A stretch of 24,704 nt of DNA from Gammaproteobacteria bacterium (GTDB lineage: Bacteria; Pseudomonadota; Gammaproteobacteria; UBA9339), in assembly GCA_018814965.1 (NCBI GenBank), contig JAHIYS010000124.1, positions 1 through 24,704 on the forward strand. The letters are read 5' to 3'. Below, piece after piece: positions 774-15,885 of this stretch (positions within the stretch are counted from its first letter, which is position 1; every line of letters begins with the position of its first letter). Under the pieces are notes generated by a model. It was not told the origin of the DNA, searched no databases, and saw only the letters and a program-made list of their open reading frames with translations. Position numbers and translations under genes: made by a program.

Positions 774-1217
774 ATGCCGGATCTTAGCAATAAAAGTTCT
801 CACGAATTTTGGCACAAATATCCAGAGCCTTCGATTTATAAAATACTGTCCTTCATGGAAGGAGTTGAAAACTGGACTCTAGATGGTGATCCTGAGTTAG
901 AAAAGATCATAAATGAACTTGGCACCACTCTTGATAATATCGGCAATATAGATCTTCAAGAGGAAGATGATTTTATTAAGATATCATCTTATATCAAAAT
1001 GGGGCGGGCTTTAAGATTACTGCAATCAATGGATGCAGCCCATCCTGGTGCAGCATCAAAAATACTAACTCATGCTGAAGCTAGCGCAAAAAATACCGAA
1101 AACACATCTGAGCTATTTCTACGACGCAATATAGTATTTGAACGTTTACGCTTGCTTGGTAGAATTTTTTCTGAAAATCGTTTAACCACTATATTACAAA
1201 TCTTGGGGGATAAATAA
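774..1217 (+). CDS. icmW: Dot/Icm T4BSS adaptor/chaperone IcmW
   Basis: MPDLS...FW start, FMEGVENWTLDGDPELE, GRALRLLQSMDAAHPGAASKIL and FLRRNIVFERLRLLGRIFS closely follow Legionella/Coxiella IcmW. Confidence 0.95.
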   Translation: MPDLSNKSSHEFWHKYPEPSIYKILSFMEGVENWTLDGDPELEKIINELGTTLDNIGNIDLQEEDDFIKISSYIKMGRALRLLQSMDAAHPGAASKILTHAEASAKNTENTSELFLRRNIVFERLRLLGRIFSENRLTTILQILGDK

Positions 1218-1219
1218 AA

Positions 1220-1678
1220 ATGCATAACATAACAAAAATAACCCTACTGACTCTTTTTATCCCGACAGTAACATTTGCCGTAACTTGCGCACCAACCGAC
1301 ACCATATGCAGAACCAAACAAAATCAATTCCTGCTAATCAAAAATACTGGAATAAAGCCCACAGAGGTTGCCAAAGCATCTACAACCACTGAAACATCAG
1401 ATGACCAAAAAAACGCGTCTAAACAATCAACCGATCGGCAGCCATTTAAAATACCATTTCCACCATTTGCTTCTAAGCCAATGACAACTTCAAACAATAA
1501 CACTGACCAAGATACTAATAACGAAGCCCCAAAACCTCAAGCAGGATCAACAACATTAAATATATTCGCCCCAACTACTGACGCCTCAAACTCAACCACA
1601 AACAAACCTAATCAAACAGATCAAAAGCAGGAACCAGCTTCTACATCTATACAACCAACAGGAATGCAATATCGTTAA
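1220..1678 (+). CDS. Secreted/periplasmic low-complexity hypothetical protein between icmW and icmX (positional equivalent of Coxiella CBU1651)
   Basis: Sec-type signal (MHNITKITLLTLFIPTVTFA), Cys pair near the mature N-terminus, T/S/N/Q/P-rich remainder. Starts 2 nt after the icmW stop and ends 23 nt before icmX. Confidence 0.75.
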   Translation: MHNITKITLLTLFIPTVTFAVTCAPTDTICRTKQNQFLLIKNTGIKPTEVAKASTTTETSDDQKNASKQSTDRQPFKIPFPPFASKPMTTSNNNTDQDTNNEAPKPQAGSTTLNIFAPTTDASNSTTNKPNQTDQKQEPASTSIQPTGMQYR

Positions 1679-1701
1679 TTAAAATAATCAAAGGAAAGCT
1701 T

Positions 1702-3045
1702 ATGAAAACAAATTTCAAATTTAAAATACTATGGGTTTTTACAGGATTAATGTTGTCATACACCCCAACACTTTTAGCACAAGATCCTACGGATGTTGTA
1801 GGCGCTATAACCGCGATGAAAAAAGAAGTTATTAAAGCTTTAAATAACACTACTCAAACTAGCATAGTAGATCAACTAAAAGCGATTAACATCCAAATGA
1901 CTACTTTATTTGATGACACATTCAAAGGTACATTTAATCCCAGCACAGGGAAAATGGAAGAAGTTGGAACTATCGACGACAAAATTACCTTATATGCTCA
2001 AAATTTTTACTCATTGTATAGCACAAAGGATTTTTCTAGCATGAATTTTATGGAAAAAAGCGACGAAAATGAGGAAGCACTACAAAAGCTACAAGCACAG
2101 ATACTCGGATATAACCTCCAACAAAGCATATCAACAAAAATTAATGATGGGAAAGCCCTTCTAGCAGAACCGATTGAAAATGGGAGCAACAATATTGATC
2201 GCGCTTCTTTAGGACTAAATCCCGATCCAGAAAAAGATAAAAGCACCTCTCCTTATGGTAGCTTAAACAGCAACTCTCCAATCGAAAGCAACGCTCCTAA
2301 TATTGAAAGTTTAATCGGTCCAGATAAATATACAGATCAAAAAATGCAGAATAAAGCAAAACTATTCATAAGCTACATTCTCCAAGCAGTACCAGCATCA
2401 AAAAACATTAGCATTCCAAGCAAAGCAGAAGCTGTAAACAACAAAGTTACCATACAACTACCATACGCAAGCCAGGATCTTCCATATACAAGCATAGAGA
2501 TATCAACAAAGGCAAGCTCGTCAGGAAGCGGGAGTGACTTAGATAATATGGAGAAATTTTTAAAGAGAAATCCTCTCTTTCAAGAATTTAAAGCAAAAAT
2601 GCGAGCAAATAACATTTTGCGCTCCCTTTATCTTCAAGGGCTAATAAGCTCATATCAAGCAAGAACTATTGATTTTGACAAAAAAGATGATAAGAGTTTA
2701 GTAGAAAGAGAAAGAGAAGCTGCAATTGCTGGCCTTGATAAACAATATTATGAGGATCTAAAGAAAATGACTGTGGCTGATGTCAATCTTGAAATTTTAT
2801 ACTCAATTAAAACTCTAAATTATTTCCTATGGAAACTCCATCAAGATAATGAGCTAAATGCGCTAGTAATAGGAGCCAGCGGCATGAGGCTAACTGCAGC
2901 AGATATGCAAGAAGAGATGCAATATCTAAAACCAATTGGCGCTCTAATTGCAAATAGGTGCTGGGATTTAGAAAGCGATGCTACCGATGAACGCAAACAA
3001 GCTTGCTCCAATCCGGCTATGGCAGCTTATATGCCAAAACAGTAA
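1702..3045 (+). CDS. icmX: Dot/Icm T4BSS periplasmic protein IcmX
   Basis: 447 aa with a signal peptide (…PTLLA|QDP). Contains NAPNIESLIGPDKY (cf. LNxxSLIxP motif) and a helical C-terminus like IcmX/TraW. Same operon as icmW. The call leans partly on synteny. Confidence 0.75.
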   Translation: MKTNFKFKILWVFTGLMLSYTPTLLAQDPTDVVGAITAMKKEVIKALNNTTQTSIVDQLKAINIQMTTLFDDTFKGTFNPSTGKMEEVGTIDDKITLYAQNFYSLYSTKDFSSMNFMEKSDENEEALQKLQAQILGYNLQQSISTKINDGKALLAEPIENGSNNIDRASLGLNPDPEKDKSTSPYGSLNSNSPIESNAPNIESLIGPDKYTDQKMQNKAKLFISYILQAVPASKNISIPSKAEAVNNKVTIQLPYASQDLPYTSIEISTKASSSGSGSDLDNMEKFLKRNPLFQEFKAKMRANNILRSLYLQGLISSYQARTIDFDKKDDKSLVEREREAAIAGLDKQYYEDLKKMTVADVNLEILYSIKTLNYFLWKLHQDNELNALVIGASGMRLTAADMQEEMQYLKPIGALIANRCWDLESDATDERKQACSNPAMAAYMPKQ

Positions 3046-11491: not shown

Positions 11492-12181
11492 TTATTTTTT
11501 ACCTTTATCCTCAGCACCCTCTTTATCTGCTGCTCCCTCTTCTGCAGCAGGTTTACCAGCAACAGGGACCTCAGCGGCAACTGGAGCGGCTGTATCTTCA
11601 ACCGCTACCCGTGGGATATAAGCTGTTGCTATAGGTTTATCCTCGCCATGAGCAAGCGCAACAATTTCAACTTCTTTTGGTAATTTTAAATCTGACAAAT
11701 GAATGGTTTGGTTAAGAACAATTTGTGAAAGATCGACTTCAACCACTTCTGGTAAATATTTAGGCAAACAACGCACTTCAATATTTGACATCAAATGTGA
11801 AATTAATGCACCAGAAAGCTTAACCCCTGGAGAGTTAGCTTCACCAGAAAAGCGCAATGGAACACGCATTGCAATCGTTTCTGCATCACTAATACGCTGT
11901 AAATCTAAATGCAAAATTCTTGGTTTAAAAGGATGACGCTGAAGATCTCTTAAAATAACTTGCTCTTTTTTGCCATCGATATCTAAATCTAGAATTTTGG
12001 TATAAAAAGAGTCGTGCACCAATAATTTCAATAACGCATTATGCTCAATTATAATCATTGCTGGCTCTGTGCCAGCACCATAAACGATTCCTGGAACTTT
12101 ATCAGCATGACGTAGGCGGCGGCTCGCACCTTTGCCCTGATCGCCACGTAAAGTAGCATTGATAGTAAAAGTCTGTTTCAT
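11492..12181 (-). CDS. rplY: 50S ribosomal protein L25/CTC (long form)
   Basis: GKGASRRLR...KVPGIVYG, LQRHPFK..ILHLDLQR and C-terminal CTC domain (CLPKYLPE..EVD). Start ATG 12181. Confidence 0.96.
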   Translation of the reverse strand: MKQTFTINATLRGDQGKGASRRLRHADKVPGIVYGAGTEPAMIIIEHNALLKLLVHDSFYTKILDLDIDGKKEQVILRDLQRHPFKPRILHLDLQRISDAETIAMRVPLRFSGEANSPGVKLSGALISHLMSNIEVRCLPKYLPEVVEVDLSQIVLNQTIHLSDLKLPKEVEIVALAHGEDKPIATAYIPRVAVEDTAAPVAAEVPVAGKPAAEEGAADKEGAEDKGKK

Positions 12182-12207
12182 TTTAATCTCCGAAGTTATA
12201 TACAAAA

Positions 12208-12229
12208 CCAATCTCGCGACCAAGATTGG
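12208..12229 (-). promoter_or_regulatory. Hairpin in rplY 5' leader (putative L25 autoregulatory leader)
   Basis: Minus strand CCAATCT-TGGTCGCG-AGATTGG: 7-bp stem carrying GGUCGC, 27 nt upstream of the ATG. A similar GGUCGC hairpin is recalled from gammaproteobacterial rplY leaders. Confidence 0.4.
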
Positions 12230-12572
12230 CCAAATTTTTAAAGAGAGGGGATTCTACACTGATTATCGGCCTAAATCTAGCAATTGCGACCAAACGACTT
12301 TAGTTTGGAAAAATCGGGTTATCATCTCAACCCATTAAAAACAAATAAGTTTTCACAAAATCTCTGGAGATCTACCATAAGGTTATAAACAAAAAATGAA
12401 ACCAAAGAGCCTCTATCTAGCTTTAGTCACACTGGATATTTTACAATTAACAACCTGCATTGCTTATTATTTCTATGATTTCAGCGCCGTCCTATTAATT
12501 AAGAAAGTTAGGAGTCGCCTAAAAAATATCCTCTTACCCATAAACCCAAACATGGCGTTAACAATATTATAT

Positions 12573-12806
12573 TTAAAAAGAAAATGAATCTCCATCACCC
12601 CATGCTTCTTCCTCCATCGCAGCAAGAGCACTTTCTTTTAATTTCTGCCACCTATCTTCTTCACCCTGCCTGGGAAATAAATAAAAAACAATACCTAGCA
12701 CAGCTACAGCCAAAAAACCAAGCACAAAAGGGCTATCATCAACACCAGATCCTATAACATGATCTATGTCTGCTTGGCTTAGTTCTGTTATTGAGCTTAA
12801 ACTCAT
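12573..12806 (-). CDS. Small protein A: double-glycine-type leader (…ELSQADIDHVIGS) plus one TM helix
   Basis: Leader has L-12, D-8, I-7, V-4 and GS; hydrophobic FVLGFLAVAVLGIVFYLF; acidic tail. Confidence 0.7.
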   Translation of the reverse strand: MSLSSITELSQADIDHVIGSGVDDSPFVLGFLAVAVLGIVFYLFPRQGEEDRWQKLKESALAAMEEEAWGDGDSFSF

Positions 12807-12879
12807 ATCTCTATCTAACTTCCCAAAATAAAAAATTCTATTACCAACACCTTCTTAGTTGCTTTGGTTTATATTAACT

Positions 12880-13149
12880 TTAACTACGCGCACTAGATGA
12901 TTTACGACTATCATTGCCTTGTTTATGCGCATCCAACTCTTTCTTCTGCTCCATAACAATTGAAATTAAACCAATGGTTGCTATAAGAATCATTATTCCA
13001 AAACCAACAGCCGCCCTAACCGGATCATTTTTGAGCTTATCATCATCTTGATCATCGACCTCTTTCCAAGCCATTTCACGGCGACTAAAACCCCCGCTGA
13101 TACAATTAATATCAACTTGCTCAAGCTCTATTATTGAATTCATACTCAT
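12880..13149 (-). CDS. Small protein B: double-glycine-type leader (MSMNSIIELEQVDINCISGG) plus one TM helix
   Basis: Leader has L-12, D-8, I-7, I-4 and GG; TM AAVGFGIMILIATIGLISIVM; GGAGA RBS before ATG 13149. Confidence 0.75.
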   Translation of the reverse strand: MSMNSIIELEQVDINCISGGFSRREMAWKEVDDQDDDKLKNDPVRAAVGFGIMILIATIGLISIVMEQKKELDAHKQGNDSRKSSSARS

Positions 13150-13437
13150 ATCATATCTCCCAATCAATTATTATCACTATAATATATTGTAACAAAACGG
13201 CATCATGAAACATTAAAATAAAATTAAATGCCTAATATAAAGCGGTTGCGATCTAAAAACCCCTGATACCTTCTCTGGATTCTGAGACAAAGACCACATA
13301 AAGATAATTCTTGAACCACGTTAAACCACCAGGTATAAAACATACAAAACAACAACTGTTGATGATTTTGCAACCAAACTTCGTAGTAACCGCCCCGCCC
13401 TATATCAGAAAAGACAATATTTATTCACCTTTACAGG

Positions 13438-13686
13438 TTAATCTCTTTTTTTATTTTCATATTTCTTAATAAAATAAGGGCAACAAATGGTAGCTATAGT
13501 AAATAATGTAAAACCAATAACACAACCAGAAATGAATACTACAATATTACGCTTATTTTCTGACACTAAAGTTAAAAAATCAGGATTAACAACATCCTCA
13601 TGATTACCCGCATGAGCACCTTGTTTGCCTCCACTAACCCAAACCCAATCCGTTAGAGAGATCTCTTTAATGGAATTTAATTTCAT
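13438..13686 (-). CDS. Small protein C: double-glycine-type leader (MKLNSIKEISLTDWVWVSGG) plus one TM helix
   Basis: Leader has I-12, D-8, W-7, V-4 and GG; TM IVVFISGCVIGFTLFTIATICCPYF; GGGGAG RBS. Confidence 0.75.
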   Translation of the reverse strand: MKLNSIKEISLTDWVWVSGGKQGAHAGNHEDVVNPDFLTLVSENKRNIVVFISGCVIGFTLFTIATICCPYFIKKYENKKRD

Positions 13687-13779
13687 TCATTTACTCCCCC
13701 AATTTATTGATATATCTATTTACCTAACCAATCCCGATCAAAAATCTTATTTAAAACCAAGTGATAAATATTGTCAGTC

Positions 13780-14076
13780 TCAAATAGAAGAGCTTCGACC
13801 TCTATAAGGACTCTCTTTCAAACAATACTCTGGGAAAGCATAAGCAAAGGGATATTGATACTTTTGCATACCAACATCTACTGTAGAAATCTTATTTTCT
13901 CCAAACATCCTTCTTACTGACGCAACTATAAAAATCGCACCAACTGCTCCGGCAACAAAACTACTTATCCTAGGATGCTCATCATGAAACTGCAAAAACT
14001 TAACCAACACTTCAGCAGCCTTATCCTGAAAACTAATTTCATTTTGATTTATAACTCTTATTGAACCTCTATTCAT
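13780..14076 (-). CDS. Small protein D: related N-terminus (MNRGSIRVINQNEI) without GG, one hydrophobic helix
   Basis: Shares the MxxxSIxxIxxxEI pattern with A-C; hydrophobic ISSFVAGAVGAIFIVASV; GGGG RBS. Confidence 0.65.
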   Translation of the reverse strand: MNRGSIRVINQNEISFQDKAAEVLVKFLQFHDEHPRISSFVAGAVGAIFIVASVRRMFGENKISTVDVGMQKYQYPFAYAFPEYCLKESPYRGRSSSI

Positions 14077-14388
14077 AAATATACCCCAAAATTTTAATTA
14101 CCTAACAAGTGATTTTTACAACGACATAACCAACCATACAATAAATACATCCAACATAATAGCACACACGAACCACACGAACACTTCTCTTACCGCCAAC
14201 AGCATAACATATATCTCATCATCCAGTTTTGATCGCAAAATTTAATATTATAAATTATTTATCAATTGACTGAGCAACTTTAAAATATTAAAAAGAGTAA
14301 CGAGCTAAGCATTAACCAATAACTTTTAATTACTTCCAAAAAATCATAAGCCCTTAATTTATTCAACAGCTCCGCAATTCCACAAAAA

Positions 14389-15885
14389 TCACTTTCCTCT
14401 ACGATAACTAATAGCCTCTTGTATATGACGATCTTTAATACCCTTTTCGGCATCAAGATCAGCAATTGTGCGCGATATTTTTATAATCCTATGATAAGAA
14501 CGGGTAGAAAGCTTAAACTTATCTACCACTCCCTCTAAAAATTCTTGATCTTTTGCTGTGATAAAACAAAATCTTTCCATTTCTTTATTTGTAAGTTCTG
14601 AATTAATTTTCCCTTGCCGAGAAATAGCATACTCACGCGCCTTGATAACTCTTACCCTTATCTGCTGGCTAGTTTCGCTATTTGTCGAACAAGATAAAAT
14701 ATTTTTTGGCAATGAGGGCACCGTAAGCCAAAGATCAATTCGATCTAAAAATGGTCCAGAAACACGGGCGCGATAACGTTTAATTTGATCCAAAGTGCAG
14801 TTGCAAATTGATCGATTATCACCAAAATATCCACATGGACAAGGGTTCATCGCCACCACCAGTTGAAATTTAGCAGGGAATCTTGCTTGATGAGCAGCGC
14901 GTGATATAGTTACATGTTTCGATTCAAGCGGTTCTCGTAATGCCTCTAAAACGTTTCGGTTAAACTCAAGTAGCTCGTCTAAAAATAGCACTCCATTATG
15001 AGCTAGAGAAATCTCTCCTGGACGAGGAGGACTAGAACCACCAACTAAAGCTACACTTGAAGCTGTATGATGCGGCGCTCGAAAAGGACGAACTTGCCAA
15101 AACCGCAAATGATCTTTTTTGCCACAAATTGAATAGATCGTTGCAGTTTCTAAAGCCTCATCATCATTCATCTCAGGCAAAATTGTAATCAGACGATTAG
15201 CTAACATTGTTTTACCAACCCCTGGCGGACCAACCATAAATAAACTGTGCCCACCAGCCGCCGCTATCTCTAACGCACGCTTAGCGTAATTTTGGCCATA
15301 AACATCACTAATATCCAAACCATTTATTGGAGCCTTTTCAGATAACGGCATCTTATATGGATGAAAAACTTTAGAACCAACCAGATATCTACATACATCA
15401 AGCAAATGCCCTAATGCAAAAATTTCAATTCCAGATACCAACCCAGCTTCATATGCGCTTTCTTTAGATAAAATTAAAATACGCTCCGCTTTTTTAGTTG
15501 CTAAAGCAAGTGGTAAAGCACCGCTAAAAGGACGCAACTTACCATCAAGCGCAAGTTCACCCGCAAATTCATATTGTGAAACATCTTCTATTTCGATCTG
15601 TTTTGAAGCAATTAAAATTCCGAGCGCAATTGGTAGATCAAAACGCCCCCCCTCTTTTTTGGGCAGATCAGCTGGCGCAAGATTAATTGTTATTCGCCGC
15701 GCTGGAAATTCGAAACCTGAATTAATCAAAGCACTTCGCACCCGGTCTTTGCTTTCTTTAATCGCAGTTTCTGGCAAACCAACCATCGAAAGAGATGGAA
15801 GCCCTGGAGAAAGATGCACTTCAATAGTAACTGGTGGCGCTTCGATACCAAAACTTGCTCGACTGTTAATAATAGCTAGAGTCAT
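14389..15885 (-). CDS. comM: ComM/YifB Mg-chelatase-like AAA+ ATPase
   Basis: N-terminal Lon-like domain (VGLPETAIKESKDRVRSA, NLAPADLPK.GGRFDLPIA), Walker A GPPGVGKT, SLAHNGVLFLDE, AMNPCPCG and GPFLDRID. Intact. Confidence 0.95.
   Translation of the reverse strand: MTLAIINSRASFGIEAPPVTIEVHLSPGLPSLSMVGLPETAIKESKDRVRSALINSGFEFPARRITINLAPADLPKKEGGRFDLPIALGILIASKQIEIEDVSQYEFAGELALDGKLRPFSGALPLALATKKAERILILSKESAYEAGLVSGIEIFALGHLLDVCRYLVGSKVFHPYKMPLSEKAPINGLDISDVYGQNYAKRALEIAAAGGHSLFMVGPPGVGKTMLANRLITILPEMNDDEALETATIYSICGKKDHLRFWQVRPFRAPHHTASSVALVGGSSPPRPGEISLAHNGVLFLDELLEFNRNVLEALREPLESKHVTISRAAHQARFPAKFQLVVAMNPCPCGYFGDNRSICNCTLDQIKRYRARVSGPFLDRIDLWLTVPSLPKNILSCSTNSETSQQIRVRVIKAREYAISRQGKINSELTNKEMERFCFITAKDQEFLEGVVDKFKLSTRSYHRIIKISRTIADLDAEKGIKDRHIQEAISYRRGK

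Follow-up and report, generated by a model that had tools for sequence, protein, structure and literature searches.

The rplY-comM locus

The stretch of DNA analysed here, called the window, comprises 24,704 nucleotides of contig JAHIYS010000124.1 (positions 1-24,704, forward strand; assembly GCA_018814965.1) from a Gammaproteobacteria bacterium of GTDB UBA9339. A 2.2 kb interval of this window, between rplY and comM, carries four co-oriented minus-strand open reading frames (ORFs), designated A-D. Their coordinates, sizes (77-98 aa) and N-termini agree exactly with the initial annotation of the DNA (Table 1). A-C probably encode leader-cleaved, exported peptides resembling class II microcins, with D as a family member that has no cleavage site, and the array would be part of a dispersed repertoire sharing one exporter. 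The genome as a whole is 1.50 Mb in 251 contigs, with 37% G+C and 97% completeness.

The N-termini of A-C form a 20-residue leader of the double-glycine (GG) type. The three leaders align in exact register, as first described: position -12 is L, L and I in A, B and C, position -8 is D, position -7 is I, I and W, position -4 is V, I and V, and the cleavage site is GS in A and GG in B and C. The first 45 nt of the four genes, D included, show 51-67% pairwise identity, whereas the remainder falls to 27-34%, the background level; the downstream cores are unrelated in sequence. Over these 45 nt D is 60-64% identical to A and B, and a 44-nt direct-repeat family (D1), detected by a repeat finder, spans the 5' ends of A, B and D. 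The 5' half of the leader is still seen in D at the DNA level. Where VxGG is expected, D reads QDKA and so has no cleavage site, which fits the earlier suspicion that the site had been lost. In the leader profile search D gave only a weak match, INQNEISF.

In each of the four proteins a single 19-mer is strongly hydrophobic (Kyte-Doolittle mean 1.9-2.6) and is flanked by charged segments, in line with the one hydrophobic helix first described for each core. The net charges of the A, B, C and D cores are -7, 0, +2 and +2, and in B, C and D the C-terminal flank of the helix is more basic than the N-terminal flank.

The ORFs have the properties of real genes. A codon-usage model was trained on the 534 long ORFs of the genome, and out-of-frame ORFs embedded in long genes served as the spurious set. 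The log-odds scores of A, B, C and D are 0.43, 0.44, 0.36 and 0.27. Long genes score 0.29 +/- 0.09, and the spurious ORFs, only 0.2-1.9% of which reach the values of A-D, score -0.01 +/- 0.15. The seven other small ORFs of the interval have codon usage like that of non-coding sequence. The TTGGG-containing tract noted before each start is real; it is G-rich and lies 6-7 nt before the ATG in B-D and 12 nt before it in A. Gene callers also recognised A, B and C on short contigs of three independent assemblies, from JGI, ENA and Logan, and the array is identical, with no single-nucleotide polymorphisms, in four groundwater or biofilm metagenome runs.

Table 1. Features of the rplY-comM locus, its surroundings in the window, and the export genes elsewhere in the genome (TM, transmembrane; C234 and C170, contigs of the same genome)
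Feature	Position	Strand	Description
A precursor	12573..12806	-	77 aa; leader MSLSSITELSQADIDHVIGS, G-S site; leader codons 12747-12806; core 57 aa, acidic, TM helix PFVLGFLAVAVLGIVFYLF N-proximal
A ribosome-binding tract	12819..12824	-	GGGAAG, G-rich, Shine-Dalgarno-like; 12 nt before ATG
B precursor	12880..13149	-	89 aa from ATG (95 aa from a TTG further upstream); leader MSMNSIIELEQVDINCISGG; core 69 aa: charged N-segment, then TM helix VGFGIMILIATIGLISIVM, then basic polar tail
B ribosome-binding tract	13156..13161	-	GGGAGA, Shine-Dalgarno; 6 nt before ATG
C precursor	13438..13686	-	82 aa; leader MKLNSIKEISLTDWVWVSGG; core 62 aa: polar N-segment, then TM helix IVVFISGCVIGFTLFTIAT, then basic tail
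C ribosome-binding tract	13694..13700	-	GGGGGAG, Shine-Dalgarno; 7 nt before ATG
D protein	13780..14076	-	98 aa; leader-derived N-terminus MNRGSIRVINQNEISF; one TM helix RISSFVAGAVGAIFIVASV
D ribosome-binding tract	14084..14087	-	GGGG, Shine-Dalgarno-like; 7 nt before ATG
Terminator-like hairpin and T-run	12315..12334	-	downstream of A, upstream of rplY; found by consensus scan only; possible end of array transcription
rplY	11492..12223	-	ribosomal protein L25/TL5; conserved left flank of the variable interval
comM	14389..15885	-	comM-type Mg-chelatase-like ATPase; conserved right flank
icmW	774..1217	+	IcmW, type IVB (Dot/Icm) component; NF038222, 167 bits against a cut-off of 100; context, lineage marker
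Transporter	C234:2479-4617		712 aa; domains C39, ABC_membrane, ABC_tran
Adaptor	C234:4614-5726		HlyD family, 370 aa; overlaps the transporter gene, lying upstream
Outer-membrane protein	C170		TolC type

A genome-wide family of leader peptides

BLAST and phmmer searches of A-D against all frames of their own genome showed that only the leader is shared with other peptides. A strict regular expression for the leader, applied to all stop-to-stop frames, matched 26 small ORFs, whereas shuffled residues gave 0.9 matches and reversed sequences 1. A hidden Markov model (HMM) of the leader together with a looser expression brought the family to about 40 credible small ORFs at 26 loci on 24 contigs. 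Their leaders, 15-20 aa long, have the consensus (I/L)xELNxxE(I/V)xxVxGG, and conservation of the penultimate Gly exceeds 90% when 41 of the peptides are aligned. The initial annotation had described the array as a cassette with a conserved leader and variable cores. The leader and core pattern stands; the array however is one locus of a genome-wide family and not a special cassette.

The cores fall into mutually unrelated groups: Cys-rich; Gly-rich or multi-helix hydrophobic; TM plus Cys; and A-C of the window. The Cys-rich CxC...C..CC family counts 14 members under a strict rule and as many as 19 once variants are included. The same leader thus stands in front of Cys-rich soluble cores that have no TM helix as well. 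No Pfam or NCBIfam model matches this family. Its mini-proteins open the core with CxC, followed later by C..(x)CC, and contain 6-9 Cys; six stand in tandem at C251:312-3147. The members are found on contigs C251, C17, C59, C71, C90, C96, C97, C141, C159 and C223 (loci L132, L134, L140, L141, L144, L146, L149, L155, L161 and L163-L167).

Among the 41 peptides the recurrent model matches, all below threshold, are to bacteriocin families with a GG leader: PF10439 in five (best E 0.004), TIGR04149 in four and TIGR03949 in three. Single sub-threshold matches are to MccV, the E492 microcin, two leader models and unrelated families. The NHLP/Nif11-type leader models TIGR03793, TIGR03798 and PF07862 match none of the 41. 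GG peptide genes lie at contig ends in 17 cases, with 13.4 expected (p = 0.15), which is not a significant enrichment.

A side observation concerns the upstream regions of the family. Of 39 GG peptide genes, 7 have the heptamer CTTAATA, often as CTTAATAAT, in the 100 nt before the gene. Relative to random genomic 100-mers, a background not matched to intergenic composition, this is an excess of about 16-fold. The genes lie on C2 (two), C25, C130, C223 and C251, with a near-match, CTTAAGA, on C190; A-D do not have the heptamer in their upstream regions. These genes may have a promoter element or regulator site in common here.

The database searches returned no relatives of the cores. A, B and D retrieved only themselves from 5.8e9 proteins in a word-indexed search and are orphans by that measure. 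Neither TIGR01847, to which the initial annotation had pointed, nor the other bacteriocin models PF10439, PF17508 (MccV), TIGR03949 and NF051486 are significant for A-D, and no match to them appeared even with E values as high as 10. When C was searched exhaustively with HMMER, the matches were C itself and four long repetitive proteins, none of them a true homologue. One of these, a 1286-aa repetitive protein (E 9e-12), was considered and rejected; its score is the sum of eight weak matches of 13-20 bits. The repeat behind the inflated matches (P0005, P0007, P0008) reads ...SGGKKGGGQSEEP..., with a pairwise E of 0.04. Because the significance comes from repeat-inflated sums of 13-20-bit matches, it does not indicate homology.

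The exporter

The genome has one strong match to the C39 peptidase model PF03412 (E 2.8e-38). It belongs to an ABC transporter, encoded with an overlapping HlyD-family adaptor, and a TolC-type outer-membrane protein is encoded on another contig. The nearest solved relative of the transporter is PCAT1 (E 5e-91). Aligned with it, the transporter has the oxyanion Gln and the catalytic Cys (QTEVAECG), the His (HFVVL) and the Asp (HDP) all conserved. To judge from these residues, the C39 domain is predicted to be an active peptidase and not the Cys-less C39-like domain of HlyB-type exporters. The transporter reaches no NCBIfam equivalog cut-off; the NHLP-type exporter model scores highest, ahead of HlyB, LssB and bacteriocin_ABC. 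The leader had been annotated as the signal cleaved and exported by C39-peptidase ABC transporters, and this claim gains support from the presence of such a transporter, with its adaptor and TolC, from the roughly 40 leader peptides and from their co-occurrence with the exporter.

In relatives (L002-L010) the adaptor-transporter operon is also present and stands alone. The copy in a genome of the same genus is 76% identical and that in a 0.8-Mb genome from a different genus 64%; the corresponding values for rplY are 74% and 53%. Since the exporter is conserved as well as rplY or better, it is vertically inherited and not a contaminant. It is retained in two 0.8-Mb genomes that are 100% complete.

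As for tailoring enzymes, YcaO was not found in the genome. A LanC search returned nothing, and its control failed too. The only SPASM radical-SAM gene (C242) sits among glycosyltransferases and not near a precursor.

Distribution of exporter and peptides

The GTDB order consists of one family of 22 species with genomes of 0.4-2.0 Mb. IcmW is found in 19 of the 22 genomes and, at 167 bits, in the window, in keeping with the earlier description of a Dot/Icm-bearing lineage. A strong transporter match is present in 13 genomes and absent from nine. The family was surveyed for peptides with the leader DNA pattern [ED]-x-x-x-x-[ED]-[IVM]-x-x-[IVM]-x-G-G, which covers positions -13, -8, -7, -4, -2 and -1 and at the -12 codon needs just a T at the second base; the leader of B fits it. 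Six transporter-positive genomes gave 12, 13, 12, 8, 7 and 6 matches and the rest fewer, with 0-1 in controls read backward. Across 150 other gammaproteobacterial families, one genome each, the pattern was matched 0-6 times, for the most part by housekeeping motifs, compared with 12 times in this genome.

Three kinds of match were removed: ELITTEI..GG, which in two relatives is the C-terminus of ATP synthase gamma; IYPGEIFM.IGG, an ABC ATPase motif; and one match that contains a stop. For the two 0.8-Mb genomes true peptides were added by inspection of loci. After these corrections leader peptides are present in 11 of the 13 transporter-positive genomes and a true match in none of the nine negative ones, counts that are lower bounds and not independent. 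The peptides of the relatives keep the GG/-4/-7/-12 pattern that the initial annotation had singled out. Seven IcmW-bearing genomes, one of them in the same genus, have neither exporter nor peptides.

The interval in relatives and peptide turnover

The rplY-comM synteny is conserved in the family and the interval between the two genes is variable. It measures 116-370 bp in four relatives, three of them of the same genus, and is there too short for an array. In three others it is 0.8-2.6 kb with unrelated genes: 815 bp with a 175-aa frame in one, 2.1 kb in a second, with a 628-aa protein whose N-terminus reads by eye as cyclic-nucleotide-binding, and 2.6 kb with a 682-aa protein in the third. 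None of these seven intervals contains GG peptides. As the interval is either short or filled with other genes, the array is a lineage-specific insertion at a variable spot.

Two side observations concern the same interval. It is an insertion hotspot: L113 (G019:C17) and L116 (G021:C50), oriented as in the window, have the 628-aa or the 682-aa protein there in place of peptide genes. At L114 (G003:C40), in a genome of the same genus that has no exporter and no GG peptides, comM appears in three tblastn pieces with its continuity broken, which suggests that the gene may carry frameshifts or be a pseudogene.

Tandem GG-peptide arrays with hydrophobic cores are common elsewhere in the relatives, and the leader of one pair from the same genus, MHKSSITEISLAEIDNVSGG, resembles those of the window. 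For paralogue pairs in relatives the ratio of non-synonymous to synonymous change (dN/dS) is 0.87 and 2.48 where the pair is recent, and 0.39 and 0.15 where it is older, all from small samples. The recent pair at L173 (G004:C43:37300-39700) has dN 0.21, dS 0.085 and a dN/dS of about 2.5 with a nearly identical leader; this single pair hints at diversifying selection on the core. The peptide of one 0.8-Mb genome has a counterpart in a sister species that is just 33% identical and contains a stop. Turnover of the peptides is fast. Orphan, fast-turnover cores and a lineage-specific insertion between conserved genes fit a conflict-type evolution.

Proposed mechanism

The C39 domain of the sole peptidase-containing ABC transporter would recognise the 20-residue leader and cut after G-G, or after G-S in A. 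The transporter, the HlyD-type adaptor and the TolC-like channel would then move the core of 57-69 residues to the outside in one step. Some 26 loci would supply about 40 substrates to this one exporter, none of them encoded beside it. Such loci could arise by duplication of the leader-bearing 5' end, with the core rapidly replaced or diverged. Once released, the cores, with one TM helix each, would most likely insert into a target membrane, and the most probable role is antagonism of other bacteria in the manner of class II microcins or bacteriocins. This antibacterial role is the default by analogy; it would fit the patchy, accessory distribution and the rapid turnover. D probably stays in the membrane of the producer, as a relic or possibly as a protective protein. 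As a leaderless protein with a single TM helix it is the sole immunity candidate in the interval, although nothing ties it to immunity; D is a family member that has degenerated or else a membrane protein kept by the producer, possibly with an immunity-like role.

A number of points weigh against this interpretation. A-D have no meaningful match in Pfam or NCBIfam and thus none to a curated bacteriocin or microcin model. Among the ORFs scanned in the window there is no transporter, modifying or immunity gene, as the initial annotation had also found, and no adjacent immunity gene was found. The 7.6-kb exporter contig contains no credible GG peptide gene, and in nine relatives none lies within 1.5 kb of the exporter. 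Co-occurrence was counted with a stringent DNA pattern in genomes that are related and in part incomplete; because of this relatedness and incompleteness, the co-occurrence of peptides and exporter is an association and not a test. The cores look like ordinary single-pass membrane proteins, unlike the Gly-rich amphipathic cores of characterised microcins. Finally, an antibacterial role is less obvious in a probably intracellular lineage with reduced genomes.

Alternative explanations

The absence of linkage to the exporter, the absence of an immunity gene, the bitopic look of the cores and the retention of the exporter in 0.8-Mb genomes keep a host-directed role in play. The peptides would be exported in the same way, released into a bacterium-containing vacuole and inserted into the membranes of a eukaryotic host, as a type I-secreted arsenal alongside Dot/Icm. 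RaxX of Xanthomonas demonstrates that a substrate of such a transporter can in principle act on a host. The lineage bears Dot/Icm, as judged from IcmW, and has small genomes; both complete 0.8-Mb genomes keep, besides the exporter (64% identity), a few GG peptides whose cores have a charged N-segment and a single TM helix. Immunity genes were not found in the interval, the cores resemble bitopic membrane anchors, and rapid turnover suits host-interaction genes as well as it does bacteriocins. The system is however accessory: seven IcmW-bearing genomes are without it, so it is not needed for the lifestyle. In addition, eukaryote-like motifs are not seen in the cores, the samples are groundwater and biofilm metagenomes, and the characterised Gram-negative GG-leader peptides of this size are all antibacterial (PMC12219008). 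On balance a host target is unlikely, though it is the most serious competitor of the microcin-like reading. Its extension to the whole order is doubtful: a Dot/Icm lineage, presumably living in protists, in which one exporter serves a large, fast-evolving set of TM peptides and Cys-rich mini-proteins that act on the host or vacuole membrane, as a second effector system independent of Dot/Icm.

Other explanations do without a secreted toxin. A-D could be ordinary small inner-membrane proteins of the producer, with a leader-like N-terminus that was taken over from an ancestor, has lost its export function and either stays attached or is irrelevant. Each has one strong TM helix, the C-flank is the more basic one in three of them, and D has kept gene-like codon usage after losing the GG site. 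The leader, on the other hand, is the sole conserved part in A-C and some 40 paralogues, down to the cleavage-site Gly, and occurs only alongside the peptidase-transporter; since it is also attached to soluble Cys-rich cores, it is not a membrane-protein feature, and residence in the producer membrane is improbable as an account of the array. Streptococci export GG-leader pheromones by such transporters, and peptides of the ComC/BlpC type, sensed by a two-component system, might be considered here because the array abuts comM, with its hint of competence, and a LuxR-family regulator lies 5.5 kb away. This is very improbable. The mature parts, at 57-69 aa and with a TM helix, differ from soluble pheromones of 17-30 aa; neither a histidine kinase nor a response regulator is encoded in the interval or beside it; a set of about 40 unrelated cores is much too large for signalling; and the adjacency to comM reflects a conserved synteny that received the array, not a functional cluster. 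That the ORFs are non-coding chance frames of an AT-rich intergenic region is scarcely credible. The lack of homologues of the cores would be expected of such frames, whereas codon scores in the range of real genes, Shine-Dalgarno sites, conserved leader codons and the calling of A-C in three assemblies, with the other ORFs of the interval scoring as non-coding, would not.

Comparison with known systems

Parker et al. (2025, PMC12219008) give class II microcins an operational definition: proteins of less than 150 aa that have a double-glycine signal (GG, GA or GS) and leave the cell through a peptidase-containing ABC transporter, an adaptor and TolC, as a rule accompanied by an immunity protein of the membrane. 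The pairing of GG-signal peptides with peptidase-containing ABC transporters is established and reportedly pervasive in Gram-negative bacteria, and such transporters have no reported function besides the export of GG-signal proteins (PMC12219008). A-C and the class II microcins (archetype MccV/CvaC with CvaB, CvaA and TolC) are alike in being Gram-negative precursors of less than 150 aa with a signal of about 15-20 aa. The two systems also share a C39-peptidase ABC transporter, a HlyD-type adaptor and TolC, as well as divergent cores behind a conserved signal. A-C thus have the size and signal by which class II microcins are defined, whereas D, with QDKA, does not have the signal. Unlike class II microcins, the exporter here is not beside the peptide genes, an adjacent immunity gene was not found, and a 1.5-Mb genome contains about 40 precursors. 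The single-pass TM cores are orphans that match no MccV or microcin model, and the putative export system belongs to a small-genome Dot/Icm group and not to the Enterobacteriaceae.

Gram-positive class II loci such as the pneumococcal blp locus (PF10439) have tandem genes with a common leader and a variable mature part, and the same hydrophobic -4/-7/-12 and acidic -8 positions. Those loci also contain genes for immunity, for a pheromone and its two-component system and for a linked transporter, none of which is seen here, and A-D do not match PF10439. Bacteroidetocins and other GG-leader bacteriocins of Bacteroidota are shorter than 100 aa, with a 15-aa signal and a peptidase-containing ABC transporter, and their signals are too divergent for enterobacterial search pipelines (PMC12219008). 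Unlike the peptides described here, bacteroidetocins are encoded near the transporter, and their cores are conserved, contain disulfides and have demonstrated activity against bacteria.

In Prochlorococcus the prochlorosins are encoded by many dispersed GG-leader precursors that share one transporter; they have long Nif11-type leaders and are made into lanthipeptides by one LanM. The likeness lies in dozens of conserved-leader, hypervariable-core precursors scattered over a small genome with a single system for export and processing, and the difference in the leaders, which are short and class II-like here. YcaO was not found here, and the one SPASM radical-SAM gene is surrounded by glycosyltransferases. 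In Xanthomonas, a host-associated gammaproteobacterium, the GG-leader peptide RaxX acts on the host after export by the peptidase ABC transporter RaxB, the adaptor RaxA and the TolC-type channel RaxC. RaxX is however one soluble hormone mimic that is tyrosine-sulfated and whose exporter and sulfotransferase genes are linked to it, and not a large TM family.

On the favoured reading, the kind of system is known but the lineage is new to it, and the repertoire, encoded away from the exporter, is unusually large. Functional studies of Gram-negative GG leaders have covered only a few families, chiefly Enterobacteriaceae and Bacteroidaceae. A literature search found no report combining double-glycine with Legionellales, and papers on double-glycine and Legionella, or on bacteriocins and Legionellales, describe no such system in their titles and abstracts. 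By our own estimate about 40 substrates would amount to roughly 2-3% of the genes of a genome of this size. If the peptides are antibacterial, these bacteria would invest heavily in interbacterial warfare; if they act on a host, they would form a new effector class. The conserved leader provides a simple handle for finding tiny orphan genes without functional annotation.

Other features of the window

A promoter scan of the array gave a result no better than shuffles, and tRNA and repeat scans found no tRNA and no mobile-element repeats flanking it. At the left end of the window (774-3045) icmW is followed by a 152-aa ORF and a 447-aa ORF, both without a family match. The 447-aa ORF may be a divergent IcmX, a supposition based on the gene order and size of icmW-icmX in Legionella.

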